A DNA stretch of 64,000 nucleotides from Planctomycetota bacterium (GTDB taxonomy: Bacteria > Planctomycetota > UBA11346): assembly GCA_038231435.1 (NCBI GenBank), contig JBBRLJ010000017.1, positions 44,676-108,675 on the forward strand, given 5' to 3'. Position 1 is the first letter of the stretch. Every line of letters starts with the position of its first letter. The notes below the pieces were generated by a model. The model searched no databases. It saw only the letters and a program-made list of their open reading frames with translations, and was not told the origin of the DNA. Shown here piece by piece: positions 44,311 through 63,099 of this stretch. The position numbers and the translations under genes are program-made.

Positions 44311-45582
44311 CTACAGCTTGATTTCCGGCTTCCTCACCGCCACGCCGTAGGCGCCGAGGGCGGTGGCCAGCTCCTGAACCACGCTCTGGCCGCTACCGGG
44401 CGCGCGGTAGAGGTCGAGGTCGGTGTACTGGGCGAGGTCGCCGATGCGCGAGACGCCGAGGTCCTCGAGCACCTTGGCGGTGCGGTTGGCGAGCTCGAGC
44501 TTCTCGACCGATTCGCCGAGGATCTTCTGGTCGGCCTTCGAGATCGAGCGCTCGTCGCCCTCGCGGAACATGCCCAGGCGCAGGTTGCGCGCCGCGAGCA
44601 TCTCTTTCACTTCCTTCAGCGAGGTCTCGCCGAAGTTCTTGTACGAGAGCATCTCCTGCTCGGTGATGCGCAGCAGGTCGCCGAGGGTGAAGATGTTCAT
44701 CTTCGCCAGGCAGTTGCGCGAGCGCACCGACAGTTCGAAGTCGTTGACCGAGGTGCGCATGATCTTCTCCATGCGCTCACGCTCGCGCTCCTCGCGCTCG
44801 TCGTAGTACATGGAGCGCGAGGCCTTGGCGTCGCGCAGCAGGGTGAGCGCGCGGCGGTCGCGCGGGTTGTAGGCCAGCACTTGGCGGAAACAGTCGAGCG
44901 CCGCGTTGGATTCCCCGCGCTCCTCGTAGAGGATGCCCAGGTTGGTGACGGCCGGCAGGTAGGCGGGAGAGGCGTCGGCGCACACCAGGTAGTGCTCGGC
45001 GGCGAGATCGTCGTCGCCGATGCGGTCGAGCAGGACGCCGATCTTGAAGGCGGCTTCGACGTGCTGCGCGTCGGCTTCGAGCGCGGCCTCGAAGGCCTTG
45101 ATGGAGGCCTCGATCTGCGAGCGGGCCTCGAGGATGCGGCCATTGAGGAAGTCGCGCTCGGCGCCCTCGGCGACGCTGGCGAGGGCCTTCTCGGCGGCTT
45201 CATCGTCGCCGCCATCGAGCAGCGCGCGCACCAGTTCGCCCTTGGCCTCGGTCATGGTCTTGGCCGCGATCTGGAAGGCGGTCTTGGCGTCGCCGTACTC
45301 GCCGAGCTCGGCGTTGATCATGCCGAGCAGGGCCTGGCCGTAGGCGTCTTTCGGATCGATCATCTCCTCGGCGTCCGAGAACTTGCCGAGCGCGAACGCC
45401 AGCGCGGCGGTGCGCAGCTTGTCCTTGACCCCGGGGATGCCGTCGGCCAGCAGCGCGGCGAGCTTGGTGCGCTCCTCGGCATCCTGGGTCGCGACGCGGC
45501 GCAGGACCCGCACCTGGGCGAGGGTCGGGCGCTCGGGCGCGGTGAGGATCTGGGCGCTGCGGGGAAGGGTGGCGGTGGGCAT
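44311..45582 (-). CDS. TPR-repeat protein with two RNA polymerase alpha-CTD-like domains
   Basis: TPR helices, then SVNDFELSVRSRNCLAKMNIFTLGDLLRITEQEMLSYKNFGETSLKEVKEML and a second, degenerate copy. Confidence 0.88.
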   Translation of the reverse strand: MPTATLPRSAQILTAPERPTLAQVRVLRRVATQDAEERTKLAALLADGIPGVKDKLRTAALAFALGKFSDAEEMIDPKDAYGQALLGMINAELGEYGDAKTAFQIAAKTMTEAKGELVRALLDGGDDEAAEKALASVAEGAERDFLNGRILEARSQIEASIKAFEAALEADAQHVEAAFKIGVLLDRIGDDDLAAEHYLVCADASPAYLPAVTNLGILYEERGESNAALDCFRQVLAYNPRDRRALTLLRDAKASRSMYYDEREERERERMEKIMRTSVNDFELSVRSRNCLAKMNIFTLGDLLRITEQEMLSYKNFGETSLKEVKEMLAARNLRLGMFREGDERSISKADQKILGESVEKLELANRTAKVLEDLGVSRIGDLAQYTDLDLYRAPGSGQSVVQELATALGAYGVAVRKPEIKL

Positions 45583-45817
45583 GGCTGACCTCGATCTGGG
45601 TGCTCCCGCGCGCCCTGGACCCATGGCCAGGGCCATGGAAGGGGTGCGGGAGATTGGTGCTGGCGGAGAAAAGGGCTCACACGATAGCGGTGAGGGAGGC
45701 GGGGCAAGGGGGGGATGGACGGAGGACCGTCGTCTGGGGAGGGAAGGACCGCCGTCCGTCTGTCGTCATCCGGCGATAACGGCAAGCCGACAGACCACGG
45801 TCGCCATCCGGGACGCC

Positions 45818-47032: not shown

Positions 47033-47243
47033 GGCGAGCCTCCTGGGGAGTCGTATCGTTGCTCGCCATCGTGAGATGCAAGGCGGCGACTGGGGGATTC
47101 CGCGAGCATGATGTATGCCGATATGGCAATTGCAGCAGGAGGGGGCGGGCTACACTCCGCGCCATGCCACGGAAGGCCATACGACGAGGACCCGCCCGCG
47201 CGTCCGTCCGTGCTCATGCATCGCCACTGCTGCGTGGTCGTGC

Positions 47244-47807
47244 ATGAGCGGCAGCGATCCTGCCGCCACCCCCGCCACCCCCGCCGCCTTCCGCCATTGG
47301 GGCCGGTGGTTTTGGCCCGTGGCTCTGAGCGTGTTGGTGCTCGATCAGCTGACCAAGTGGTGGCTGTTCGCTCTGCCCGGCAATACCCGGCTGCCGACGT
47401 GGATCCTGCCTGCCCAGAACTCGGGGGTGGCCTGGAGCATCGGCCACCAGTGGCCCTGGGCGGTGACGCTGGTCACGGCGCTGCTGCTGCCCGCGCTGGC
47501 CTGGGTGTGGTGGCGATGGTTCCGTCCGCTCGGCGCCTGGGAGAACCTCGCCTTCGGCGGCATCCTCGGCGGTGCGCTCGGCAACGGCTTCGATCGCGCG
47601 TGCGCGCGCCTCGACCTGTTCCATCTGCGCGGCGTCCGTGATTTCATCAACATCGATCTGGGTTTCTGGCCAGCCCACCCGTGGCCGACGTTCAACATCG
47701 CCGATGCCGGCATCACCGGCGGATTCCTCGTCCTGGTGGCGCTGACATTCCGCAAGCCGAAAGCCGCGACCGCCCATGCCGGCATCGTGGCCGTGTCCGA
47801 CCGCTAG
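47244..47807 (+). CDS. lspA: Lipoprotein signal peptidase II
   Basis: LDQLTKW, NSGVAWS, GGALGNGFDR, GVRDFI, WPTFNIADAGI. Confidence 0.93.
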   Translation: MSGSDPAATPATPAAFRHWGRWFWPVALSVLVLDQLTKWWLFALPGNTRLPTWILPAQNSGVAWSIGHQWPWAVTLVTALLLPALAWVWWRWFRPLGAWENLAFGGILGGALGNGFDRACARLDLFHLRGVRDFINIDLGFWPAHPWPTFNIADAGITGGFLVLVALTFRKPKAATAHAGIVAVSDR

Positions 47808-47840
47808 CTTTTTTCTTCAGGTTTCTCTAGGAGCAGTTTC

Positions 47841-50800
47841 ATGCGTTTCAATCCGATCGCCCGCGAATTGGTCTGCAAAGTGGTCTACTACGGCCCCGGA
47901 CTCGCCGGCAAGACCACCAACATGCAGGTGGTGCACGATCGCGTGCCGCCGCAGCAGGTCACCGAGCTGGTCAGCGTCGACACCCATTCCGAGCGCACGC
48001 TGCACTTCGACTGGCTCGCGCTCGATGTCGGCCAGGTCCAGGGCGTCAACGTGCGCTTCGAGATCTTCACCGTGCCCGGGCAGAATTATTACGCCGCGAC
48101 CCGCCGGCAGGTCCTGCAAGGCGCCGACGGCGTGGTGTTCATCGCCGACAGCCGCCGCGAGGCGCTCGACGAGAACATCGATTCGATGAACGAGATGCTG
48201 AACAACCTCAGGCACCACGGCCTGCCCGAGGACCTGCCGGTGGTGATGCAGTACAACAAGCAGGACCTGCCGAGCGCGCTGCGCCGCGAGCAGCTCGAGC
48301 CGCTGATGAACGTGCGCGCCTGGCCGAGCTTCGCCGCCACCGCCACCGCCGGCGACGGAGTGATGGAGACCGCGCACGCGATCTCGTCGCTGGTCGCCGA
48401 GCGCGCCACGCGCCTGGGCTCGCCGGTGCCCAGCGACGTCGCCCAGCAGAGCCAGCAGCCGGTTCCCGGCCAGAGCTGGCTGATCTCGTGCTACCGCTGC
48501 CAGACCATCCTCGAGGTCCCCAACGCCAACATCGGCTCGGTCTACACCTGCGGTGTATGCGGTTCGACGCTCGAGGTCACCGACACCGAGCGCGGCCTGA
48601 CCCGGGCGCCCTCGGCGAGCCAGGATGACAGCGGCGGCTACGCCCTGCAGAGCGCGTCGCAGTCGCCCGATGCGGGCACCAGCGCGCTCTCGGGCTCGCG
48701 CACCCAGCCGATCGAGCGCCAGGTGGCGCTCGCCGACGGCCCGGGTTTCGACCTCGAGGGCTACGACGTGGTCGCGACGCTCGACGAATCCGTTCAGGGC
48801 CGCCGCGTCCGCGTGCGCGAACGCGCCACCGGGCGCACGCTGCGCGCCTTCACCGTCTCGCCGCAGTTGATGCGCCAGCCCGGTTACCGCGACAACCTCG
48901 AGCCGTACGTGCGCATGGCCGGCCCGATCAAGCATCCCAACGCGCTGCCGCTCGCGAACCTGAGGCCGACCCACGACAGCGCCGTGCTCTTGAGCATCGA
49001 TCCGCCGGATCATGAGCCGCTCGCGCACGTGCTCGCGCGCCGCCGCGCGCTCGCGCCGCCGCACGCCATGGGCCTGTTGCGCCAGCTCGCGCTCGCGCTC
49101 GAGGAAGCCGCGCGGCATGGCGTCGTCCACGGCTGGCTGCGCCCCGACGTGGTGCTGGTCAGTCCCGACGGCAATGCGCTGCTCGACGAGCTGTGCCTGC
49201 CGAAGAACCACCGCTTCCTGGTGCGCGAGCTCTCCGGAGCCAGCGCCGCCACCGAATACTACCTGGCGCCCGAGCATCTCGGCGACGACTCGCGCAGCGA
49301 CCTGCGCTCGGACATCTTCGCGCTCGGCGCGCTGCTGTTCCGCATGATCACTGGCGAGGGTCTGGTCACCGGCTACAGCGCGCACGAGGCGCTGCACAAG
49401 GTGGTGGCCAACGGTCCGCGGCCGCTGCGTTCGACCCAGGCCGGCGTCAGCCGCGACCTGGACCTGTTCTATCAGCGGCTGGTGGCCGCCGAGCGCAAGG
49501 ACCGCTTCCAGAACTACCGCGAGGTCATCGACGCGCTCGACAAGTTCGGCGGCGGCGCCAAGCGGCAGACGCTGCGCCTGACCGGCACCGTGGCCAATAC
49601 CGGCACCGGTCGCGCGGGCCGCTCCACCGCCAACGCGCACATCGCTCGCCGCGCCACCGGCGGCTCGGGCAACTATGCCGGACGCCCGCGCTCGGGCGGC
49701 GGCACCGGCCCAGCCACCGGCTCCATCCGCAAGAAGGACGACAGCGGCGTGGTGATGGCGGTGGTGGTGGTGTGCGTGCTGCTCGCGGTCGCGCTGATCG
49801 CGGTGATGGTGATGAACCAGTCGCACTCGTCGGGCTACACCGGGCAGAGCCAGGCCGAGAGCCCGAAATCCAAGTTCGATCCGCCAACCGTCACGCGTCC
49901 GATCTCGAGCCCGCCGGCGGGATTCACCGGCGGCACCACGACCGGCGCCACGGCCGGAACGTCCGGTACGCCGCGCGCGGCAGTCACCACCGCGACCGGC
50001 GGGGCAACTGGCGGAGGGACTGGAGGCGAGGCGCCCGCGCCGCTCACCGCGGCCCAGCGCAGCGACCTGCTGCACCAGATCGCCGACATGCGCACCGAGG
50101 AGCGCTACCAGGCCGCGATCGGTCTGGCGGCGAAGTTCGATTCGGCCGAGGACCGCGACGCGCTGCCCAAGGCGATCCTCGCCCAACGCGACCTGCGCAA
50201 GAAGGACATCGAAGCCGCGGTGGTGAACAGCGTGGATCTCGAGCTGATCAAGAAGCTCGTGCAGCCCGCCCAGTCGACCTGGGGCCTGCCCGGCGACGCG
50301 GATTGGGCGAACAAGCTGGTGACCACCGCCGCGGCGCGCATCGCCGCGGCCACGCCGGAAGTCGGCCCCATCGGCGAAGTGCCGAAGCCCGTCCCGGTCG
50401 AGGTCTCGCCGATCACCGGTCGCCCGCTCGCGGTGCAGCCGGCAGTCGTTCCGCCGGTGACTCCGCCCGTCGCCACGCCGAACGCCACGCCGGCTTCGAC
50501 CCAGCCGGCCTCGCCAGCAACGACTCTGAGCGATCCGGCTGCCCAGTCGCTGATCCTGGTCGACCAGGCGCTGCTCGCCTACGCACCGATCGCGGCGCAG
50601 CAGGCGATCACCCCGCTCGACGCCCAGTCGGGCGAGGCGCGCGCGCTCAAGCACGAGATCGACTGGTGGAACCGCCGCATGCCGCTGCTGAATCGCGCGG
50701 CGCAATCCGGCAAGGTGAAGATGCGCATGCCGCATCCGACCACCGGCGAGATGTGGGACGTGCTCGGCGGCGACGCCACCAATGTCGATGTCTCGAATCC

Positions 50801-52160
50801 GGGCGGCAGCAAGTCGACCCTGCCGTGGACGCAGTTCGCTCCCAAGGACATCGCCAAAGTCTTCCAGGAAGCGGCCAACCTGCCTGACGTCACCGGCGAG
50901 GAGAACGCCACCGCGGCGATCATGCTGATGCTCGCGGGCGACCAGACCCAGGCCAGCCTGCAGATCCGCAAAGCCAAGCCGACCATCGACGCCGATCTCG
51001 GCGCCGACCTCGACACGCTGATGGGCCTGCACCGCCGCCGCGACCTGGTGGACGTGCTGGCCAAGGGCAGCGACGCGCTGAAATCGGGCAATGCCAAGGG
51101 CATCGCCGACGCGCTCGCCGAGCTGCGCAAGGCCGACAAGCCGACGCAGGCCGCGCTGGCGTCGCAGATCGCCAAGCTCGATGAAGCGCAGCAGAAGCTC
51201 GCCGTGGCCAAACCGGCGACGCCCGCGGGCACTCCGGCGGTGACGCAGGGCAAGGACAAGGTGACCTTCGACGGCCTCGATGACCTCACCGCGTTCCCGG
51301 ACACCGAGGGCAAGTGGCAGGTCAACGGCGGCGCGATCACCAACCAGGTCGACGCCTCGCGCCTGGCGCGCCACGATCTCGGCAACGCCAAATCGGTCTC
51401 GCTGCGCTTCCAGACCGCGGTGCTCAAGGGCACGCTGACCGTCGAGTTCCGCGGCGCCAAGGTGGCGCTCGACCTCGCCGCCAGCACCTACACGCCCAGC
51501 GGCAAGACCGCGGGGCGCCCGAAGGGCTTCGCGATCATCCCCAAGCTGCCGTACACGCTGCTGCTCGAGCGCAAGGACGACACCCGCACCACGCTGCAGT
51601 TCAACAACGGCGTCGAGAGCGCCGACATATCGGTCGGCGATCTCAGCGACTCGCTGACCATCACCACCGACGGCGGCGCGACCGTTGCAATCGACGAGGT
51701 CGAGGTCTTCCGCGATTCGAAGGGCTCGACCATGGCCGAGATGCGCAACGCGCTCAAGGTCACCGGCTGGGAGCCGATCGGCGGCGCCTACCTGCAGGCG
51801 CCCTCGATCATCCTGCCGTCGAGCCCCGGCACCTCGAGCGGCATCGCCACGCCGCTGCGCGACAACGTCTCTGGCTACAACTTCGAGGTCAAGGGCACCG
51901 GCGTGCTGCGCATCCAGCTCGGCCGCCTGTCCGACAAGGACGCGAAGTGGCTGCAGCTCGATGTCGAGCTGCCCAAGAATGCGCTGGAGGTCATGCCGCT
52001 GACGGTGCGCTGGACCGACAAGGGCATCGCCGTGTACGACGCCAAGGGCAACGAGAAGGTCAGCGCGGCGATCGCGGAGCGCTACACGCATCTGATGATC
52101 CTGGCGTTGAACCAGGCGACGCTCGTGAACGCGCCGAAGATCGAATACAAGGCGCCTTAG
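47841..52160 (+). CDS. MglA-like GTPase / Zn ribbon / Ser-Thr pseudokinase / TM / large extracytoplasmic domain fusion protein
   Basis: KVVYYGPGLAGKTTN, RTLHFD, TVPGQ, NKQD; CYRC..CGVC; kinase fold with APE and SDIFALG but HGW in place of HRD; TM near 49746-49815; GGAG RBS. Confidence 0.88.
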   Translation: MRFNPIARELVCKVVYYGPGLAGKTTNMQVVHDRVPPQQVTELVSVDTHSERTLHFDWLALDVGQVQGVNVRFEIFTVPGQNYYAATRRQVLQGADGVVFIADSRREALDENIDSMNEMLNNLRHHGLPEDLPVVMQYNKQDLPSALRREQLEPLMNVRAWPSFAATATAGDGVMETAHAISSLVAERATRLGSPVPSDVAQQSQQPVPGQSWLISCYRCQTILEVPNANIGSVYTCGVCGSTLEVTDTERGLTRAPSASQDDSGGYALQSASQSPDAGTSALSGSRTQPIERQVALADGPGFDLEGYDVVATLDESVQGRRVRVRERATGRTLRAFTVSPQLMRQPGYRDNLEPYVRMAGPIKHPNALPLANLRPTHDSAVLLSIDPPDHEPLAHVLARRRALAPPHAMGLLRQLALALEEAARHGVVHGWLRPDVVLVSPDGNALLDELCLPKNHRFLVRELSGASAATEYYLAPEHLGDDSRSDLRSDIFALGALLFRMITGEGLVTGYSAHEALHKVVANGPRPLRSTQAGVSRDLDLFYQRLVAAERKDRFQNYREVIDALDKFGGGAKRQTLRLTGTVANTGTGRAGRSTANAHIARRATGGSGNYAGRPRSGGGTGPATGSIRKKDDSGVVMAVVVVCVLLAVALIAVMVMNQSHSSGYTGQSQAESPKSKFDPPTVTRPISSPPAGFTGGTTTGATAGTSGTPRAAVTTATGGATGGGTGGEAPAPLTAAQRSDLLHQIADMRTEERYQAAIGLAAKFDSAEDRDALPKAILAQRDLRKKDIEAAVVNSVDLELIKKLVQPAQSTWGLPGDADWANKLVTTAAARIAAATPEVGPIGEVPKPVPVEVSPITGRPLAVQPAVVPPVTPPVATPNATPASTQPASPATTLSDPAAQSLILVDQALLAYAPIAAQQAITPLDAQSGEARALKHEIDWWNRRMPLLNRAAQSGKVKMRMPHPTTGEMWDVLGGDATNVDVSNPGGSKSTLPWTQFAPKDIAKVFQEAANLPDVTGEENATAAIMLMLAGDQTQASLQIRKAKPTIDADLGADLDTLMGLHRRRDLVDVLAKGSDALKSGNAKGIADALAELRKADKPTQAALASQIAKLDEAQQKLAVAKPATPAGTPAVTQGKDKVTFDGLDDLTAFPDTEGKWQVNGGAITNQVDASRLARHDLGNAKSVSLRFQTAVLKGTLTVEFRGAKVALDLAASTYTPSGKTAGRPKGFAIIPKLPYTLLLERKDDTRTTLQFNNGVESADISVGDLSDSLTITTDGGATVAIDEVEVFRDSKGSTMAEMRNALKVTGWEPIGGAYLQAPSIILPSSPGTSSGIATPLRDNVSGYNFEVKGTGVLRIQLGRLSDKDAKWLQLDVELPKNALEVMPLTVRWTDKGIAVYDAKGNEKVSAAIAERYTHLMILALNQATLVNAPKIEYKAP

Positions 52161-52746: not shown

Positions 52747-54075
52747 ATGCCTGAAACAGCGCGCTCGAAGACCTTTGTCGTCGATACCAACGTCCTGCTG
52801 CACAACCCGAACGCGCTCTTCGCCTTCACCGACAACCACGTGGTCATACCCATGATGGTGCTGGAAGAGCTCGACAAGTTCAAGACCGCGAACAACGAGC
52901 TCGGGCAGAATGCGCGCGAGTGCGCGCGGTCGCTCGACAAGCTGCGTGCGAAGGGGAGCCTGCGCGAAGGCGTGACCACGCCGCAGGGCGGGATCATCCA
53001 GGTGCTGCTGCGACACGACGAGATCGCCGGGATGCTGCCCGGGGTCAACGACAACCGCATCCTCGGCTGCGCGCACCTGCTCAAGCGCGAAGGGCACAAC
53101 GTGTTCTTCGTCTCGAAGGACATCAACGCGCGCATCAAGTCGGACGCGCTCGGGATCCCGAGCGAGGATTTCAAGAACCAGAAGGTCAATGCCGACGAGC
53201 TCTACACCGGTTGGGTCACCGTTACCGCGCCGAGCGAGACCGTCGACGCGCTTGCGGTCGACGAGGAGTTCTCGATCGACGGGCTGTTCGAGGCCGAGGA
53301 CGCGCCGTTGATGGCGAACCAGTTCATCGTGGTGAAGGACGAGGCCGACGAGGACCGCTACATCATCGGCATGTGGGATCCTGAGACCAAGAAGGCCAAG
53401 CGCATCGACGACGAGCAGCCCGAATTGTTCGGCGTCAGCCCTCGCAGCCCCGAGCAGCGCATGGCCTTCGCGCTGCTGCTGGACGACCGCATCAAGCTGG
53501 TGTCGCTGGTCGGCTCGGCCGGCACCGGCAAGACCCTGCTCGCGCTGGCGTGCGGCCTGTCGAAGGTCATCCATGACGACGTGACCTTCAAGAAGCTGCT
53601 GGTCAGCCGCCCGATCATGCCGATGGGCCAGGACATCGGCTACCTGCCGGGTTCGAAGGACGAGAAGCTCGCCCACTGGATGGGCCCGATCTTCGACAAT
53701 CTGCATTTTCTGCTCGCCGGCGAGGAGCGCGATCCCGACGATGTGATCCGCCGCCTGATCGAGGAGGAGTCGATCACCCTCGAGGCCCTCACCTACATCC
53801 GCGGCCGCTCGATCAGCAAGCAGTACGCGATCGTCGACGAGGCGCAGAACCTGACGCCGCACGAGATCAAGACCATCATCTCGCGCGCCGGCCAGGACAC
53901 CAAGATCGTACTCACTGGCGACCCGCATCAGATCGACAATCCGTATCTCGACAGCAATTCGAACGGATTGACGTTCGTGGTGGAGCGGATGAGGGGGCAG
54001 CCACTCGCCGGGCATGTGACGTTGACCAAGAGCGAGCGCAGCGAGCTCGCGGGAATCGCGGCGACGTTGCTCTGA
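52747..54075 (+). CDS. PIN domain + PhoH ATPase (PhoH2/YlaK type)
   Basis: VVDTNVLLH, VLEELDKFK, NDNRIL, GSAGTGKT, IGYLPG, YIRGRS, DEAQN, GDPHQID. Confidence 0.94.
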   Translation: MPETARSKTFVVDTNVLLHNPNALFAFTDNHVVIPMMVLEELDKFKTANNELGQNARECARSLDKLRAKGSLREGVTTPQGGIIQVLLRHDEIAGMLPGVNDNRILGCAHLLKREGHNVFFVSKDINARIKSDALGIPSEDFKNQKVNADELYTGWVTVTAPSETVDALAVDEEFSIDGLFEAEDAPLMANQFIVVKDEADEDRYIIGMWDPETKKAKRIDDEQPELFGVSPRSPEQRMAFALLLDDRIKLVSLVGSAGTGKTLLALACGLSKVIHDDVTFKKLLVSRPIMPMGQDIGYLPGSKDEKLAHWMGPIFDNLHFLLAGEERDPDDVIRRLIEEESITLEALTYIRGRSISKQYAIVDEAQNLTPHEIKTIISRAGQDTKIVLTGDPHQIDNPYLDSNSNGLTFVVERMRGQPLAGHVTLTKSERSELAGIAATLL

Positions 54076-54240: not shown

Positions 54241-55026
54241 TCATGGCCCCATCACGTGCCCGGAGAACTGCCCGAGCACTCCCATCGCCACCGCGAGAAT
54301 CACCGCCCCGGCCATCGACAGCAGCGCCGCCGCGAGGATGTGGCCGAGCATGCGCGCGTGCGACGCGGCGGCGTCGCGATGATGATCCGCAAGGCGCAGG
54401 CAATGCTCCTCGGCATCGGCCTTGCCGAGCGCGGGTGCGAGGCGCGCGAGATCCGCTCCGAGCAGCGTGGCGATCTCGGCCTCGGTCATGCGCCAGCGCA
54501 CGGCGAGCGCGGCGCGCGCGTAGAGCGAGGCGCGGCGGAGGTGGTACGACCAGGTGCCCAGGATGGTGACGCGGCTGGCGATGGCCTCGCCGCACCAGGG
54601 CAGGATCAGCGCCGAACTGATGACGATGGCGCCGGGCACGGCGGCGGCCAACCATGGCCAGGCGACGGTCGGATGCAGGGTGCGGACGACGATGGTCGCG
54701 GCGATCAGCACGATCGTGCTGCTGAGCAGGGGCTGGGCGAGGTGGTCTCTCCAGGTGCCGCGCCTGAGGCGGCGGTCCTCGAGCTCGTCGGCGGCGAGCA
54801 GCGCGGCGCGCTCCAGCGGCGGGCGGGGGCCGACGAGCAGATGCCGCACATGGCTCGGCGCGATGCCGGCAAGGGCCTGCGCCACGGTCTCGCCGCGCGC
54901 GAGCGCGGCGGCCACCGTTGCGGCGCCGGGAGTGGAGTCGGCGCCCAGGGTGGTGATGAGATCCTCGCGCCGCGCGGCGCTCTCGCCGATCAGGCGCAGC
55001 AGGGCGATCAGGTCAGCGTCGCGCAT
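54241..55026 (-). CDS. Divergent GspF/PilC-like membrane protein (short)
   Basis: ALARGETVAQALAG helical domain, HLAQPLL + TM, second domain and terminal TM; adjacent to a GspE-like gene. Confidence 0.55.
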   Translation of the reverse strand: MRDADLIALLRLIGESAARREDLITTLGADSTPGAATVAAALARGETVAQALAGIAPSHVRHLLVGPRPPLERAALLAADELEDRRLRRGTWRDHLAQPLLSSTIVLIAATIVVRTLHPTVAWPWLAAAVPGAIVISSALILPWCGEAIASRVTILGTWSYHLRRASLYARAALAVRWRMTEAEIATLLGADLARLAPALGKADAEEHCLRLADHHRDAAASHARMLGHILAAALLSMAGAVILAVAMGVLGQFSGHVMGP

Positions 55027-57388
55027 CGGCGGCCTCCTGGACTCCAGCGCTGGATTCGCGGCGGTCGCTGGCGGGCGGTGCCGCTGCATCGGACACGGGC
55101 GCCGACGGAGATCCCGGCTGGGAGTCTGCCGCTGGGATGTTTCCTGATGTGGTAGCAGAGGTTGTCGCGGAACTTCCGGCCGAATTCGGAACCGGGCTGA
55201 GGATGGAGGCGGGGACGAAGTCAGGCACCTCGTCGCGGAGCGATCCCGCCTGGAGATTCATCCGCTTGAGGAACACGCCATGCACCTGGAACTGCACCAC
55301 GCCGATGATCAGCACCGGGATCGCCAGCAGCGCCGGGGCGGCGATCATGATCGCGGTGGTCAGCCAGGCGCGGTGGATGGCGCGGCGGCGTTCGCAGCGC
55401 TCGATCGCCAGGGCCAGGCCGGCGCGATCATCGGCCCGCCATCCGCAGGCGCGCATGATGCCGCGCAGATCGCCCGCCTCGCCCGCCTGCCGCAGCGCGC
55501 GTCGTGGCCATGCGAAGCTCGCCGCGAGCGCGCGCGCGATCTCGCTCTCGGGGATCCCCGACCACGCCGCGCGCGCGACCAGGCGTCCACGCGCGAGGCG
55601 GCGCGCGGCGTGCTGCCCCGGCAGCCAGCCGCTCATGTAGGCGCACCACGAGATGGCGACGGTCATGCCGACGATCGGGATGAACAGGATCGACCACGAC
55701 GGCGGTGACGCCGCCTTCATGGTCCGCAGCACCGCGCTCATCAGGGGCGGGATCTCACAGTGGTCGTACGTCATCATCCTTTCGTATTTCGGCAGCACGG
55801 CGACGAGCAGATAGACGGTCATGAACCCCACCATCGCGGCGGTGGCGAGCATGCCCGGCAGCGCCACCCGCCAGCGGCCGGAGCCGGGATCGCTCGCGCC
55901 GGCATGCTCCGCGCACCAGTCGGCGAGCGCTTCGCGCCCGAGCGATTCGGCGGCGAGCGCTTCGCGTTCGAGCCGGCCAGGGATCAGCCATTCGGCACGC
56001 AGCGCCGCGACCAGCGAGGGATCGCCGCCGTCGATGCGCTCGAGCGCGCGCGCGATGCGTCCAGGATACGGCATGGGCAGGGACATCGCCGAGGCGCTGA
56101 GCGCGCCCGAGACATCCTGGGCATGACGCAGCGCCTCGCCCAGGCGCGCGCAGATGATGCGTGTCGGCGCCATGCCGGGTAAGGCGAGGCGCACCAGCGT
56201 CCACAGGCCCTGCGCGATCATCACCGCGATCAGCGCCTGGGCGACGGCCAGCAGCGCGAATCCGGCCACCGCCATCACCGACGCACGCGATTCCTCGACG
56301 TGCAGCGGAATGAACAGGTCGCGCATCGACCAGTGGAAGCCCAGCTCCAGGGTGAGCGCGGCGAAGCAGCCGACCCCGGTCATGATCGCGGCCAGCCCCA
56401 GCAGCGGCAAGGCGCTAGCGACATCGCGACGGTGGCGCTCCTGGGCGAGAACCTCGGCGGCGTTCCAATCGCGTTCTCCGCCGGTCGTGATCGGCACCAT
56501 GCCCATCCCGTCGAGCGCGGTGGCGAGATCGCCGCCGGCCTCGCGCAGATACGCCTCTGGGTTGCCGCGGAACCAGCACAGCAGGCACCAGTCGCGCCAG
56601 TCGGCCATCCACGCGGGCGTGCCGGGCGCGCGCGCGGCCAGGCGCAGGCGGCCGAGCCAGCGATCGATGCGCGTCGCCGGCGGGACATGGTCGGGCGCCG
56701 CGCGCGCGTGGCGCACCAGCGCGAACGCGAGCGCGCTGCGGTGCGCGTCGGGGCACCACGCGAGCCTGAGCGTGCGCGCCCCGCGGACGCGCGGCAGCAG
56801 CCAGCACGCCGCTGCCAGCCCGCCCAGGACCAGCACGCTCGCCTCGCCCAGGCACAGTGCCAGCGATCCCGTGGCCGGCTCGGAACGCGGTGTGTCTGGG
56901 TAATCCCATTCCCACATGCGCATGGCGTAGGGCGAGACGATGGTGGCGCCGAAGGCGTGGTAGCGCTTGCCGCTCGCCGCCTCCACTGCGAGCACTAGCA
57001 GCAGGCTCGGGAGCAGCGCCACGCATCCAAGCCAGAACGGATACCAGCGGATCCACCGGTAGCCGCGCGCCGGCCCGCGCGCTTCCAGCGCGATCGCGGC
57101 GAGACGGCGCGACAACGCGAGGGCGTCGCCAGAAGATGAGATGCCCGCGTGAGCGGCCGCCAGCAGCGCGCACTCGTCGGCGCTCACCAGGCGCTGCGCG
57201 CGCAGGACCTGGTGCAGCGGTTCGCCCGCGCGCAACGGCGGCGCGAGTCGGTGCGCCCAGCCGCGCAGTTGCGCGTCGCCTGAGGCCAGGCCTTCCAGAC
57301 CGTCGGGGATGGATTCGCGGCCGGCGGCGAGCAGGGAGAGCGCCGTCAGGAGTTCGAAGCGCCGGGGGGACAGGAAGGGCCAGAACAC
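55013..57388 (-). CDS. Divergent, double-length GspF/PilC-like membrane protein
   Basis: Repeated T2SSF-like units (LRAGEPLHQVL; IDGGDPSLVAAL...AESLG; VAVLPKYERMM; AGEAGDL) each followed by TM segments; probable GTG start at 57388. Confidence 0.6.
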   Translation of the reverse strand: MFWPFLSPRRFELLTALSLLAAGRESIPDGLEGLASGDAQLRGWAHRLAPPLRAGEPLHQVLRAQRLVSADECALLAAAHAGISSSGDALALSRRLAAIALEARGPARGYRWIRWYPFWLGCVALLPSLLLVLAVEAASGKRYHAFGATIVSPYAMRMWEWDYPDTPRSEPATGSLALCLGEASVLVLGGLAAACWLLPRVRGARTLRLAWCPDAHRSALAFALVRHARAAPDHVPPATRIDRWLGRLRLAARAPGTPAWMADWRDWCLLCWFRGNPEAYLREAGGDLATALDGMGMVPITTGGERDWNAAEVLAQERHRRDVASALPLLGLAAIMTGVGCFAALTLELGFHWSMRDLFIPLHVEESRASVMAVAGFALLAVAQALIAVMIAQGLWTLVRLALPGMAPTRIICARLGEALRHAQDVSGALSASAMSLPMPYPGRIARALERIDGGDPSLVAALRAEWLIPGRLEREALAAESLGREALADWCAEHAGASDPGSGRWRVALPGMLATAAMVGFMTVYLLVAVLPKYERMMTYDHCEIPPLMSAVLRTMKAASPPSWSILFIPIVGMTVAISWCAYMSGWLPGQHAARRLARGRLVARAAWSGIPESEIARALAASFAWPRRALRQAGEAGDLRGIMRACGWRADDRAGLALAIERCERRRAIHRAWLTTAIMIAAPALLAIPVLIIGVVQFQVHGVFLKRMNLQAGSLRDEVPDFVPASILSPVPNSAGSSATTSATTSGNIPAADSQPGSPSAPVSDAAAPPASDRRESSAGVQEAADARR

Positions 57389-57397
57389 TGATGGCAG

Positions 57398-57645
57398 GAG
57401 AAGGGGAAGAGGGGAAGGAAGAAGGAAGAAGTGGAAGAAGTGGGAAAGAAGATGAATGAAAGGGGGAGGCGGGAGGCGTAAGAAGTAAGAAGTAAGAAGT
57501 TGGAAGCTGGAAGACGGGAGGGGCGGCGGAAGGCGGAGAGCGGATTGATGTACGGAGTGTGCTTCCCGGCGCCGGCCCGCTCGGCCAGATCCACCTGCTC
57601 CTCTTCTTCCTTCGATCTTGCCTCTTCCAACTTCCAACTTCCCAG
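57398..57645. repeat. Inverted 7-nt periodic purine/pyrimidine repeat element
   Basis: GAAGTAA GAAGTAA GAAGTTG GAAGCTG GAAG ... CTTCCAA CTTCCAA CTTCC between divergent genes; similar elements at 18284, 27544, 30842 and 40363. Confidence 0.7.
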
Positions 57646-57691
57646 CTGTTTTTTGCAGTGCATTCCTCATCCCACGGCAACGCTGACCACC

Positions 57692-58765
57692 ATGCCAACG
57701 ACCGGCAAATCGTGGATCGAGGAGCTGCTCGCGCGCATGTCCGCGGGCGGCGCGAGCGATCTGGTGCTCGAACCCGAGGACGACGGTGGCCTGCGCGCGG
57801 TGGCGCGATTGGAGGGTGTGCGCCAGGTGATCGCGCGCTGTCCGGCTGATTTGGCGGCGGCGGCGATCGCGCGGTTGAAGGCGCTCGCGCAGCTGCCGGC
57901 ATACATCACCACCGAGCCGCAGGACGGGCGCATCGACGGCAAGCCGTTCGGCATCGCTGGCGACGTGCGCATGGCGGTGTTCCCCACGGTGCGGGGACAA
58001 CGCGTGGCGCTGCGCCTGCCCGCGCTCGGCGCGCTGCCCGAGCCGGGCGAGCTGGGCCTTTCGCCCGAGGTGCTCGCACAGCTGCGCCGCCTGGTGCGCG
58101 CGCCTGACGGCATCGTGCTGATCACCGGGCCGACCGGCTCGGGCAAGACCACCACCATCCATAGCCTGCTGCGCGAGCTCGCCGCCGAGCGCCCCGACCG
58201 TCAGGTGCTGACGCTCGAGGATCCCGTCGAGCGCCTGCTGCCCGGGGTGAGCCAGGCCGAGGTCAAGCCGCACGCCGGCTTCGGTTTCAACGAAGCGCTG
58301 CGCGCCGCGCTGCGCCAAGACGCCGACGTGCTGGTGGTGGGCGAGATCCGCGACGCCGATACCGCCAACACCGCGGTGCGCGCGGCGCTCAGTGGCCACG
58401 TGCTGGTGGCGACGCTGCATGCGGGCCGCGCCCGCGACGTGGTGCCGCGCCTGTTCGAGATGGGCGTGAGCGCCGACCTGCTGCTGCCGTCACTGCGCGG
58501 CGTGCTCGCCCAGCGCCTGGTGCGCCTCGCCCACGCGGCCTGCGCCGGCGCCGGCTGCGCGCACTGCCACGGCGGCTATCGCGGACGGCGCATCGTCACC
58601 GATCTGATGGTGGTCGACCACGCGGCCAGGCAGCGGCTGCGCGCCGGCGAACCGGTGGCGATGATCGCCGACATGGATGAGCAGGCGGCGAGGATGGTCG
58701 CGGAGCGAGTGACGGATGGGGGGGAGGTGGGGAGGGTATTGGGGGGGCTTCGGGAGAGGCTGTGA
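57692..58765 (+). CDS. GspE/PilB-family secretion ATPase lacking the N-terminal accessory domain
   Basis: ASDLVLEP, PQDGRI, GPTGSGKTTT, TLEDPVE, LRQDADVLVVGEIRD, GHVLVATLHA, VLAQRLVR, GCAHCHGGYRGR. Confidence 0.92.
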   Translation: MPTTGKSWIEELLARMSAGGASDLVLEPEDDGGLRAVARLEGVRQVIARCPADLAAAAIARLKALAQLPAYITTEPQDGRIDGKPFGIAGDVRMAVFPTVRGQRVALRLPALGALPEPGELGLSPEVLAQLRRLVRAPDGIVLITGPTGSGKTTTIHSLLRELAAERPDRQVLTLEDPVERLLPGVSQAEVKPHAGFGFNEALRAALRQDADVLVVGEIRDADTANTAVRAALSGHVLVATLHAGRARDVVPRLFEMGVSADLLLPSLRGVLAQRLVRLAHAACAGAGCAHCHGGYRGRRIVTDLMVVDHAARQRLRAGEPVAMIADMDEQAARMVAERVTDGGEVGRVLGGLRERL

Positions 58766-59040: not shown

Positions 59041-59394
59041 ATGCAGACGTTCGAGGATCTCGATGTGTGGGCGATGGCGGCGGAACTCGCTGAGCGGATC
59101 GGACGACAACGCGGACTGAGCCGCAACGGAGATGGGCTCGGTTCGCAGATCCGCCGCGCGTCGCAATCGATCGTGTACAACATCGCCGAGGGCTGGGGTC
59201 GGCGCGGCGAGGTGGAACTCAACCGCTTCCTGGTCATCGCGCAGGGTTCGTGCGCGGAAGTGCAGGCGCAGTTGCGCATGGCCTACCGCACCGGCAGCCT
59301 GGCTCGCCAGGACTTTCTCGACCTGATCGAGCTGGCGCAGCGCGTGGGCTGGATGCTCAGGGGATTCATCCGTCGGCTGCAGCCGCCGCGGTGA
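59041..59394 (+). CDS. Four-helix-bundle protein (23S rRNA IVP/Avd-like family)
   Basis: FEDLDVW, LGSQIRRASQSIVYNIAEGWGR, FLVIAQGSCAEVQAQL; AGGAGA RBS. Confidence 0.92.
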   Translation: MQTFEDLDVWAMAAELAERIGRQRGLSRNGDGLGSQIRRASQSIVYNIAEGWGRRGEVELNRFLVIAQGSCAEVQAQLRMAYRTGSLARQDFLDLIELAQRVGWMLRGFIRRLQPPR

Positions 59395-61884: not shown

Positions 61885-62964
61885 TCAGCCGCCATAGACG
61901 ACGAGCGGCTCGGTCATGCGCTCGGGCGCAATCTGCGGCGAGAACGGCGCGACGCCGCCATCGAGCGGACTGCGCACCCCGAGGCGGCTCTTGTTGAGCA
62001 CGTGGGTGTAGATCTGCGTGGTGGACACATCCTGGTGGCCGAGCAGCTCTTGCACGGTGCGGATGTCATAGCCGGATTCGAGCAGATGGGTGGCGAAGGA
62101 ATGGCGCAGGGAATGGCAGCTGGCCGTCTTGGCGATGCCCGCCTTGGCCATCGCTGCTTTCACCGCGCGCTGCAGCGACTGCTCGTGCACGTGATGCCGG
62201 CGCCACGTGGCGCCATCGGGCGAACGCGGATCGCGCGACAACTCGGCCGCCGGAAACACGTATTGCCACGCCCACTCGCGATCGGCCTTGGGATATTTGC
62301 GCAGCAACGCGAACGGCAGATGCACCGAGCCCCCGCCCGCCGCCAGATCCTGCCGATGCAGCTCGCGCACGCGCGCGATGTGTTCTTGCAGGACCGGCAG
62401 GATGCGATCCGGGAGCATGGTCACCCGATCCTTGTAGCCCTTGCCCTCGCGCACCAGGATCTGCCGATAGGCGATATCGACATCCTTCACCCGCAAGCGC
62501 ACGCATTCCATCAGGCGCATGCCGGATCCGTAGAGCAGGTTCGCCATCAGCCGGTGCGTGCCCTCGAGATGCGCAAGCACCGCCGTGACCTCGGCCTGAT
62601 TAAGCACCACCGGCAACCGCAGCGGCTTCTTCGCGCGCACCAGCCCATCGATCCACCCGAGATCCACCCCGAGCACCGCGCGGTACGCGAACACCAGCGC
62701 ATGCATCGCCTGGTTCTGCGTCGACGCCGCCACCTCTTGCCCGACCGCGAGATGATTCAGGAACGCCGCCACCTCGGCCTGCCCCATGCGCTTCGGATGC
62801 CGCATCCCGTGATGGACGATGAAGCGCTTGATCCAATGGATGTAGGTTTCTTCAGTGCGATAACTGAAATGCCGCGTGCGAATGACGTCGCGCACATCAT
62901 CGATGAAGGTCCGCCGCGCCGGGACCGACGACAGCTGATCGACATTGGGAGGATCGGCGGCCAT
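61885..62964 (-). CDS. intI: Integron integrase (tyrosine recombinase)
   Basis: [36 protein letters not shown], integron-specific insertion ([19 protein letters not shown]), [27 protein letters not shown]. Confidence 0.97.
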
Positions 62965-63099
62965 GCATAGAGTCTATACAGACCCTAATAGAAACAAGCG
63001 CTTTACCGCGTCAAAATGCCAAAGAATGCCCCATGATATGTCTGTTCGGGCTCGATCGAAGCAACCTATGATACCAAAGCCACTTATGCCTACCCCAAA

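Follow-up and report, generated by a model that had tools for sequence, protein, structure and literature searches.

A candidate single-pass signalling protein of uncultured Planctomycetota that joins an MglA-type GTPase domain, a zinc ribbon, a predicted pseudokinase and a lectin-fold outer part

The window analysed here is a stretch of 64,000 nucleotides (nt) from a Planctomycetota bacterium (assembly GCA_038231435.1, contig JBBRLJ010000017.1, positions 44,676 to 108,675 of the forward strand). Our subject is a single gene within it, at 47841..52160 on the plus strand, in which 1439 codons run without interruption. The gene lies between lspA and a PIN-PhoH gene, and its product begins with an MglA-type GTPase (G) domain, continues with a four-cysteine zinc ribbon and a Hanks-type kinase fold with degenerate catalytic motifs, crosses the membrane once, and ends in 781 amino acids (aa) that follow the transmembrane helix (Table 1). 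An initial annotation, made from the letters alone, had described one uninterrupted open reading frame (ORF) of 1439 aa with this anatomy; the ORF list and the translation agree, every motif it quoted is present in the translation, among them DESVQG, LRAF, HGWLRPDV, DEL, HPN, APE and SDIFALG of the kinase region, and its family assignment of every part is borne out by the comparisons below. The protein is a newly recognised combination of known kinds, the MglA switches and the receptor-type Hanks pseudokinases.

Table 1. Features of the gene, its neighbours and the second MglA locus of the same genome. Coordinates are window positions except in the last row. GC3, G+C content at third codon positions; TM score, template modelling score; AF2, AlphaFold2; pLDDT, predicted local distance difference test.
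Feature	Coordinates	Strand	Basis and details
lspA (signal peptidase II)	47115..47807	+	Pfam Peptidase_A8, E 3.4e-24
Shine-Dalgarno-like AGGAG	47830..47834	+	read in sequence; 7-11 nt 5' of ATG at 47841
Whole ORF	47841..52160	+	1439 aa plus stop; GC3 0.92
MglA-type G domain, aa 1-192	47841..48416	+	PDB MglA, E 2.5e-48; Foldseek TM score 0.91-0.94
Four-cysteine zinc ribbon, aa 212-256 (C217, C220, C237, C240)	48474..48608	+	Cys in 89/89 members; all-beta model
Disordered linker, aa 260-301	48618..48743	+	pLDDT <50; 25% mean identity to homologues
Hanks-type kinase fold, degenerate catalytic motifs (predicted pseudokinase), aa 305-572	48753..49556	+	PknE/PknB matches; Foldseek; motif columns
Conserved post-kinase motif FGGGAKRQTLRLT, aa 569-581	49545..49583	+	conservation over 89 members
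Single transmembrane helix, core aa 637-658	49749..49814	+	only segment with Kyte-Doolittle mean >1.6; peak 3.44
Low-complexity Thr/Gly/Ala/Pro stalk, aa 659-759	49815..50117	+	translation; 20% mean identity
Extracytoplasmic helical modules, aa 760-1123	50118..51209	+	AF2 pLDDT >90 outside linker
Beta-sandwich 1, predicted concanavalin-A-like lectin/glucanase fold, aa 1134-1294	51240..51722	+	VIA-align, Foldseek
Beta-sandwich 2, aa 1309-1439	51765..52157	+	AF2 all-beta, pLDDT about 95
PIN-PhoH gene, downstream	52747..54075	+	Pfam PhoH 6.6e-45, PIN_4 7.8e-34
Second MglA and Roadblock cluster	G000 contig C33, locus L006:4017-11268		Pfam, sequence

The family of the G domain is clear. Residues 4-189 match the MglA structures 5ymx, 3t12 and 6h17 in phmmer at 38-46% identity, and the modelled domain superposes on MglA in Foldseek with a root-mean-square deviation (rmsd) of 1.4-1.9 (E value and TM scores in Table 1). 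The G1 motif GPGLAGKTT lies at aa 18-26, RTLHFD with the switch-I Arg52 at 52-57, TVPGQ with Gln81 at 77-81 and the G4 motif NKQD at 139-142; Thr in place of Asp in G3 is given as the feature that defines MglA in the accessible part of one account (PMC3000849). In the whole 1439-aa protein, Pfam reports Arf and Gtr1_RagA above cut-off. Among 89 aligned members of the family, K24 is kept in 87, R52 in 86, T77 in 86 and Q81 in 80, and of the G4 residues N139 is kept in 88, K140 in 86 and D142 in 87, so that the intrinsic Arg and catalytic Gln first noted in this copy are retained across the family. Judged by these columns, the GTPase machinery is under purifying selection, and the domain has every residue that GTP binding and MglA-type hydrolysis require. 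The Ras-like G fold with MglA as its best match, the Thr-type G3 (TxxGQ), the switch-I Arg and the catalytic Gln are thus those of MglA. The context is not: the domain is part of a 1439-aa protein rather than a single-domain protein within the 150-240 aa set by Wuichet and Sogaard-Andersen 2015, and there is no Roadblock/MglB gene within four genes of it.

Between the G domain and the kinase fold lies the motif CYRC-x16-CGVC (aa 217-240), a predicted metal site and the zinc ribbon proposed at the outset, whose four Cys are invariant. The ribbon model is all-beta (AF2 pLDDT 92-94), with two CxxC knuckles on beta hairpins; the Pfam match to Zn_ribbon_LysW is weak (E 2.3e-3) and under cut-off. 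The AF2 model of aa 1-600, built with 89 family sequences as input (pLDDT 86.6, predicted TM score (pTM) 0.54), consists of three well-folded units, the G domain (1-192), the ribbon (212-256) and the kinase fold (305-572), with low-confidence stretches at 201-209 and 260-301.

The kinase-like domain is recognizable by both sequence and predicted fold: aa 325-568 match PknE and PknB (E 1e-16 to 1e-12; 1e-17 to 1e-12 for the domain at aa 305-572), and the modelled fold matches PknB, PknA and PknI in Foldseek with TM scores of 0.75-0.84. Pfam Pkinase scores above its cut-off, yet spans only profile positions 55-251, and hence leaves the Gly-loop/beta3 part unscored. Membership of the NCBIfam MADS6 kinase, PASTA kinase and PglW families was considered and rejected, the partial matches reaching 39-76 bits against cut-offs of 450-990. 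Motif columns were assigned from an alignment with five canonical kinases and counted over the 89 members. At the Gly-loop position the sequence is DESVQG here and LD[ED]SxQGRR family-wide, with no GxGxxG. The beta3 Lys column holds Ala (80/89), preceded by an invariant R335 whose register carries a one-residue uncertainty, since the MAFFT and HMMER alignments disagree; the alphaC Glu column holds Tyr, His or Phe. The HRDxKPxN column reads HGWLRP[DE]V, with H430 in 89, G431 in 87, W432 in 85, R434 in 87 and P435 in 89 of the 89 members. Structural motifs are kept: D449 at the DFG Asp position (as DE[LFI]), D491 and R555 in 89/89, and APE in 88-89/89. An active kinase's Gly loop, beta3 Lys, alphaC Glu, HRD Asp and catalytic-loop Asn are therefore lacking, and its DFG Asp, APE, subdomain IX Asp and subdomain XI Arg are present. 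The replacement of catalytic motifs, originally read in this copy alone, is a property of the whole family, and the degeneracy is ancient and itself a conserved family signature. The terms "pseudokinase" and "dead", as used here, are predictions from these columns. Directly after the fold comes FGGGAKRQTLRLT, in which F569, G570-G572, A573 and T581 are conserved in at least 90% of the members, and which might be a phospho-acceptor or docking site.

The transmembrane helix of this protein has a comparably strong counterpart (peak 2.1-3.75) after the kinase in all 45 of the multi-segment relatives listed. The N-terminus is probably inside and the C-terminus outside, since the domains at the N-terminal end are users of nucleotides and no signal peptide precedes them. 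The initial annotation had placed about 780 aa, helical and then beta-rich, beyond a single membrane segment, and the AF2 model of aa 760-1439 (78 sequences, pLDDT 89.9) has just this order: a short helical bundle, a Pro-rich disordered linker (842-892), a helical module that includes a small beta element (899-1123), and two beta-sandwiches. Pfam found no family at E<=0.1 in either half of the ectodomain, and an ESM Atlas search with aa 895-1130 returned only unnamed hypothetical clusters of the Planctomycetes-Verrucomicrobia-Chlamydiae (PVC) group, at 0.91-0.92. In VIA-align, sandwich 1 matches sialidase lectin modules, the carbohydrate-recognition domain of ERGIC-53, legume-lectin-like domains, CBM66, DUF1080 and GH16 (Z 13-17, rmsd 2.5-3.1, about 155 residues aligned). 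The best Foldseek match of the ectodomain is 4jqt, a tandem DUF1080-type protein (E 9e-10), and the two sandwiches align jointly to the tandem jelly-roll proteins 4jqt and 1w0o. The predicted concanavalin-A-like assignment of sandwich 1 holds at the level of the fold only. A relation to clostridial neurotoxins, which also appear among the Foldseek rows, was rejected: the TM scores are 0.08-0.27 and the rmsd 17-29, and what is shared is a jelly-roll and long helices only.

How widespread is this architecture? A word-indexed protein search gave 257 proteins at E<=1e-5, and among the 120 of them that were listed at least 105 clusters at 90% identity (P0002-P0106, 791-1575 aa, E<=3.5e-127, drawn from NCBI, JGI, ENA and Logan) have the G-domain plus kinase architecture. 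The names these members carry, in metagenome-assembled genomes (MAGs) of Planctomycetota, are only "protein kinase", "MglA" or "SRP receptor beta/kinase". Genomes were searched with the ribbon plus kinase (aa 201-620). In a sample of 401 genomes of the phylum, matches at E 1e-38 to 1e-174 are confined to the GTDB family of the window, where all 23 sampled genomes show them, and the best match outside that family is a generic kinase (E 2.5e-29). At the scope of the class (48 genomes, all of one family, in 18 genera), 44 genomes match at E<=1e-35, covering all 18 genera, and 37 of the 44 have a single strong match. Completeness is 62-79% in the four genomes without a match, of which three contain pieces of a fused-type G domain, each piece in a short open frame (134-265 aa). 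The gene is near-universal and mostly single-copy in this class-level, wholly uncultured lineage. Its parts evolve at different rates: mean identity to homologues is 61-65% in the cytoplasmic domains, 25-30% in the linkers and the transmembrane helix, and 29-37% in the ectodomain. A conserved cytoplasmic part beside a diverging ectodomain is what receptors with a diversifying sensor usually show. Some relatives are apparently shorter. P0125 (700 aa) has the G domain, ribbon, pseudokinase and transmembrane helix and lacks the ectodomain; P0132, P0135, P0136 and P0139 (513-523 aa) have the ribbon, an HGWLRP-type pseudokinase and a C-terminal transmembrane helix, without G domain or ectodomain. 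The pairing in the latter four indicates that the ribbon is tied to the pseudokinase.

What evolutionary steps account for the fusion? A G-domain tree (FastTree, LG+gamma, unrooted) places 99 of 99 family G domains in one clan with no free MglA inside it (support 0.997-1.0, stem 0.41-0.47). In an exhaustive profile-free scan of 1.84 billion representatives, about 40 clusters span the G domain, ribbon and kinase, and a second group consists of proteins of 620-960 aa in which a canonical kinase (Pkinase E 1e-46 to 1e-68) comes after the MglA domain. Pattern matching finds GEGGMG or GEGAMG in 10 of 11 of these canonical-kinase fusions, HRDVKPxN in 7 of 11 and DFG in 10 of 11. The zinc ribbon is found in none, and some have TPR repeats, a second kinase-like domain or a C-terminal transmembrane helix; those with names come from Planctomycetota MAGs. 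Ten of the 11 group in a clan of their own (0.976), the sister of the present family, with a support of 0.80 for the joint split. The simplest history, moderately supported, is a single MglA-kinase fusion in Planctomycetota, of which one branch later lost catalysis and gained the ribbon and the ectodomain.

Other MglA fusions came to light in these searches. P0147 (812 aa) combines an MglA-type G domain, which falls outside the other fusion clans, with FHA, GGDEF and Pkinase domains. P0108 and P0109, from Gemmatimonadota, join MglA to DnaA-like AAA+ domains. The P0110/P0111 entries include MglA with an ion channel and pentapeptide repeats (Candidatus Uabimicrobium amorphum) and a 1005-aa Arf+Ras protein. 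A strong hydrophobic segment is present in 23 of 90 extended MglA representatives (250-720 aa). Two giant proteins, P0138 (2592 aa) and P0151 (2573 aa), have six Pkinase matches each.

The source genome also has a second MglA. No Roadblock/mglB domain (PF03259) is found in the 64-kb window, which agrees with the early remark that no mglB is adjacent. A genome-wide search, which had been suggested as a check, puts that remark in a different light, as there are three PF03259 matches, all on contig C33 and beside another MglA, so that a candidate trans-acting GTPase-activating protein (GAP) is available. The C33 MglA is 48% identical, has 527 aa with a long Pro-rich linker and a C-terminal hydrophobic helix, and looks membrane-anchored. 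It is flanked by TPR-Roadblock, Roadblock and Roadblock genes, then by a gene for a DUF4388(PATAN)-TPR-PQQ-propeller protein; the Roadblock proteins are potential GAPs, judged by their domain. All 48 class genomes hold the free MglA paralogue or the fused type, and most hold both. Across these genomes identity is 66-100% for the free paralogue, whose open frames span some 400-560 aa, and 26-52% for the fused G domain.

The surroundings of the gene were compared over 21 orthologous loci, which range in GC from 45 to 74%. The lspA gene, the sole PF01252 match in the assembly, lies directly 5' on the same strand in 20 of the 21 loci, and the 33-nt gap between it and the ORF contains no terminator-like site by scan or in the sequence. 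The PIN-PhoH gene is downstream in 17 loci, and a class-III aminotransferase upstream in 10. A tie to the nearby type IV filament motor, which the initial annotation had entertained, does not survive this comparison: the PilT-like ATPase gene (57500-58765) is syntenic in none of the 21 loci. That gene (T2SSE, plus strand, E 1e-73) is overlapped by a 1135-aa ORF on the minus strand (55013-58420) with no Pfam match, of which at least the overlapping part is probably non-coding. On the other side of our gene, 44311-45636 on the minus strand encodes a 441-aa protein with TPR repeats and two RNA polymerase alpha C-terminal domain matches (E 1.6e-29), an unusual pairing that is syntenic in 5 of the 21 loci. 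Further downstream are a gene of the 23S rRNA intervening-sequence protein family (59041-59394, plus strand) and a tyrosine recombinase of the phage integrase family (61885-62973, minus strand), and these two may mark the border of a mobile element.

Several known systems resemble parts of the protein. MglA of Myxococcus xanthus and Thermus thermophilus (5ymx, 6h17, 3t12, 3t1o) shares the G fold, the TVPGQ motif, the switch-I Arg and the Gln, and Roadblock genes of the kind that encode its GAP, MglB, are present in the source genome as well. That MglA, however, is soluble, measures about 195 aa and has mglB as its gene neighbour, whereas here the domain is the N-terminus of a membrane protein, and the long branch of the tree separates free MglA from the fused clan. 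The sister proteins (P0107, P0141, P0143-P0145, P0148, P0149, P0155, P0172 and P0181) have the same N-terminal MglA-type G domain, a linker and a Hanks kinase; unlike the present family they keep canonical kinase motifs and have neither a zinc ribbon nor a large ectodomain. The receptor kinases PknB/PknE and StkP show the same order of kinase, membrane segment and outer sensor and include the best structural matches, but those proteins are active as kinases, sense through PASTA or other domains and lack a GTPase; here five catalytic motifs are lost. The Roco proteins (LRRK2 and the Roco protein of C. tepidum) likewise have a Ras-like GTPase and a kinase fold on the same chain. The comparison with Roco/LRRK, already made in the initial annotation, holds as an analogy and fails as a matter of family: the present protein has an MglA-type G domain that clusters with MglA, a degenerate kinase and the layout of a transmembrane receptor, the Pfam Roc match reaches 18.7 bits where 27 are needed, and neither COR nor LRR is matched at E<=1. 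By the same analogy, the sister clan with its active kinases suggests a coupling of GTPase and kinase similar to that of Roco.

Among pseudokinases the nearest parallel is MviN (Rv3910) of M. tuberculosis, of the ActPs3 family, with a cytoplasmic degenerate Hanks fold, a transmembrane segment C-terminal to it and an outer carbohydrate-binding domain. In the accessible text of the review by O'Boyle et al. 2025 (PMC12599244), the MviN pseudokinase is described as a phospho-dependent scaffold that forms back-to-back dimers and has a carbohydrate-binding domain attached. The likeness observed is one of layout. MviN apparently belongs to a different pseudokinase family, which is actinobacterial and has an activation-loop deletion; it is fused to a lipid II flippase and has neither GTPase nor zinc ribbon. 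The families set out in that text are ActPs1-3, GLW, CP1, DYD and DLHK, and it presents no GTPase fusion and no Planctomycetes. GLW, DYD and DLHK are membrane-associated degenerate Hanks folds with Arg-rich pockets as possible nucleotide sites. Compared by the review's description only, the GLW family, which is proteobacterial, has GLW for HRD and a poly-Leu beta3, where our family has HGW and xRA and belongs to Planctomycetota; likewise by description only, the MviN-type ActPs3 family is marked by an activation-loop deletion and an aromatic fill of the pocket (PMC12599244).

As far as the texts are accessible, the literature on MglA with a pseudokinase, on MglA-kinase fusions and on MglA in Planctomycetota contains no description of this architecture, in line with the initial annotation, which knew of none, nor one of MglA fused to canonical kinases as in the sister clan. 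In the Ras-like GTPase survey of Wuichet and Sogaard-Andersen 2015, sequences longer than 240 aa, 39 of the 488 in the MglA clade, were excluded, and Planctomycetes are not listed in the accessible portion (PMC4316618); fusions like the present one lie outside that survey because of its length cut-off. The main text of the Planctomycetota kinase survey of Odelgard 2024 mentions neither GTPase, Arf, MglA nor pseudokinase (PMC11032199), and Krupa and Srinivasan 2005 report no GTPase fusion.

How might such a protein work? We favor, at about even chances, a type-I-like single-pass signalling protein, with an MglA-type switch, ribbon and dead-looking kinase in the cytoplasm and a stalk, helical modules and lectin-type sandwiches outside, in which the pseudokinase serves as transducer or scaffold of a receptor-coupled GTPase switch. 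Its ancestor would be an MglA-kinase fusion, and the kinase motifs are still intact in the sister lineage. The outer domains would bind a glycan-type ligand of the envelope or the environment, and on binding the pseudokinase next to the membrane would change its conformation or its oligomeric state, as receptor kinases and pseudokinases do. In the role of transducer or scaffold, and possibly by dimerisation as in PknB or MviN, the pseudokinase would then gate the nucleotide state of the tethered G domain or its access to effectors, and the outcome would be recruitment of MglA-GTP effectors to a defined membrane site. A GAP acting in trans, such as any of the three Roadblock proteins of C33, would probably be needed for GTP hydrolysis.

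Of course several observations weigh against this receptor scheme. Every carrier of the gene is an uncultured MAG. The initial annotation had suggested that the pseudokinase may serve the G domain as scaffold, GAP or GEF, and had named AlphaFold as a check on contacts between the two: with a monomer pTM of 0.54 and disordered linkers, the model of aa 1-600 predicts no fixed interface between the two. P0125 and the P0132-type variants indicate that the cytoplasmic module can exist without the outer sensor or the GTPase, and a predicted lectin fold does not by itself establish a function. Shared descent of gene order, without any bearing on function, may account for the synteny with lspA and PhoH. 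By analogy with the DYD and DLHK families, the invariant R322, R335, R434 and D449 could form a nucleotide site.

One might think, conversely, that the signal runs from the inside out, in a Roco-like manner, with the G domain as a GTP-dependent timer for dimerisation or partner binding of the pseudokinase scaffold. The output would then be phospho-dependent partners, such as FHA proteins bound to a phosphorylated threonine of RQTLRLT, as in MviN and FhaA, rather than MglA-GTP effector binding. We consider this unlikely, though it has real attractions. In the sister clan a G domain of this type is joined to intact kinases, which is what one would see had the GTPase first regulated a kinase; T581 of FGGGAKRQTLRLT, after the pseudokinase, is among the conserved residues; the source genome has 17 FHA-domain matches and many active kinases; and MviN offers a precedent (PMC12599244, as accessible). 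But phosphorylation of T581 is pure conjecture, the conserved neighbours at the 21 loci include no FHA or active kinase gene, and the large conserved ectodomain is explained no better by such a timer than by the receptor scheme.

Is the protein instead a structural landmark? The lectin-type domains might bind the cell's own envelope glycan or peptidoglycan, and so fix a membrane-tethered MglA at the pole, the division plane or the growth zone, as a constitutive anchor for polarity or envelope biogenesis that is co-expressed with lspA. A housekeeping-like distribution, near-universal in the class and with one strong match in most positive genomes, would suit such a role, as would the position 33 nt behind the sole lspA with no terminator-like site between and the constancy of that neighbour. 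The other MglA is apparently membrane-anchored too, so that MglA in this lineage seems to be tethered as a rule. The ectodomain, however, evolves fast and is missing in some relatives, and the retention of the G-domain switch residues argues for regulated cycling over a static anchor; on balance we regard a landmark as quite unlikely.

It is very unlikely, in our judgement, that the kinase-like domain is an atypical active enzyme, using Arg in place of the beta3 Lys or SidJ/SelO-like ATP chemistry, and regulated by the GTPase as in Roc-LRRK2. The invariance of D449 and the invariant or nearly invariant R322, R335 and R434 speak for such an enzyme, and the Arg-lined pockets of the DYD and DLHK families, also termed pseudokinases, are predicted to bind ATP in the accessible text of the review (PMC12599244). 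Yet the HRD Asp, the catalytic-loop Asn, the Gly-rich loop and the alphaC Glu are absent family-wide, and the register of R335 against the beta3 Lys is ambiguous.

Finally, there is the reliability of the gene itself. The source genome, a MAG, comprises 5.2 Mb in 108 contigs at 87.6% completeness, and a second long ORF, of 1424 aa, runs antisense to 47841..52160. Long antisense ORFs are common in GC-rich DNA. The plus frame has a GC3 of 0.92 against a window GC of 67.6%, and all domain matches fall in that frame. Read coverage across the domain junctions had been suggested as a check on the fusion, and unitigs of a second sample from the public runs, independent of the assembly behind the window, tile the gene at 0 mismatches and span the junctions from lspA to the start codon (47100-47882), from the G domain through the ribbon to the kinase (48289-48995) and from the kinase to the transmembrane helix (49541-49860). 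The public runs found for the gene are 12 DNA metagenome runs, with no RNA run among them; read-layout "joints" with sides of 21-39 letters only were taken as noise from other organisms. An assembly chimera or singleton is ruled out by the unitigs, the at least 105 clusters of similar length from four sources and the 44 of 48 class genomes, and with the GC3 and the high pLDDT of both AF2 models in addition, a gene-call artefact or decaying pseudogene deserves next to no weight either, the fragmented MAG and the antisense frame notwithstanding.

Bacterial MglA-type GTPases are small soluble switches run by separate GAP and guanine-nucleotide exchange factor proteins. To our knowledge, the only route known by which an outside signal reaches MglA is the Frz chemosensory route in Myxococcus. 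In the lineage described here an MglA switch is wired into a receptor-like transmembrane protein that is a core gene of a class, with sister proteins whose kinases are apparently live. A bolder proposal is that the protein is a "receptor plus G protein" in one polypeptide, in which a lectin-type sensor drives the GTP/GDP state of MglA through a dead kinase turned exchange factor or GAP-gate, and that the ancestral MglA-kinase fusion is a bacterial, non-Roc counterpart of Roco/LRRK. We find this doubtful; if it were true, one class of Planctomycetota would have evolved independently a way to carry the signal of an extracellular ligand across the membrane to a Ras-like switch. On the fold predictions, the family would also be a second independent case, after MviN, of a pseudokinase coupled to an outer carbohydrate-binding-type module. 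MglA emerges as a modular domain, naturally fused to kinases, channels, AAA+ ATPases and membrane anchors, and the present family offers a compact bacterial model, expressible in the laboratory, for the question raised by LRRK2 of how a kinase fold and a small GTPase communicate.

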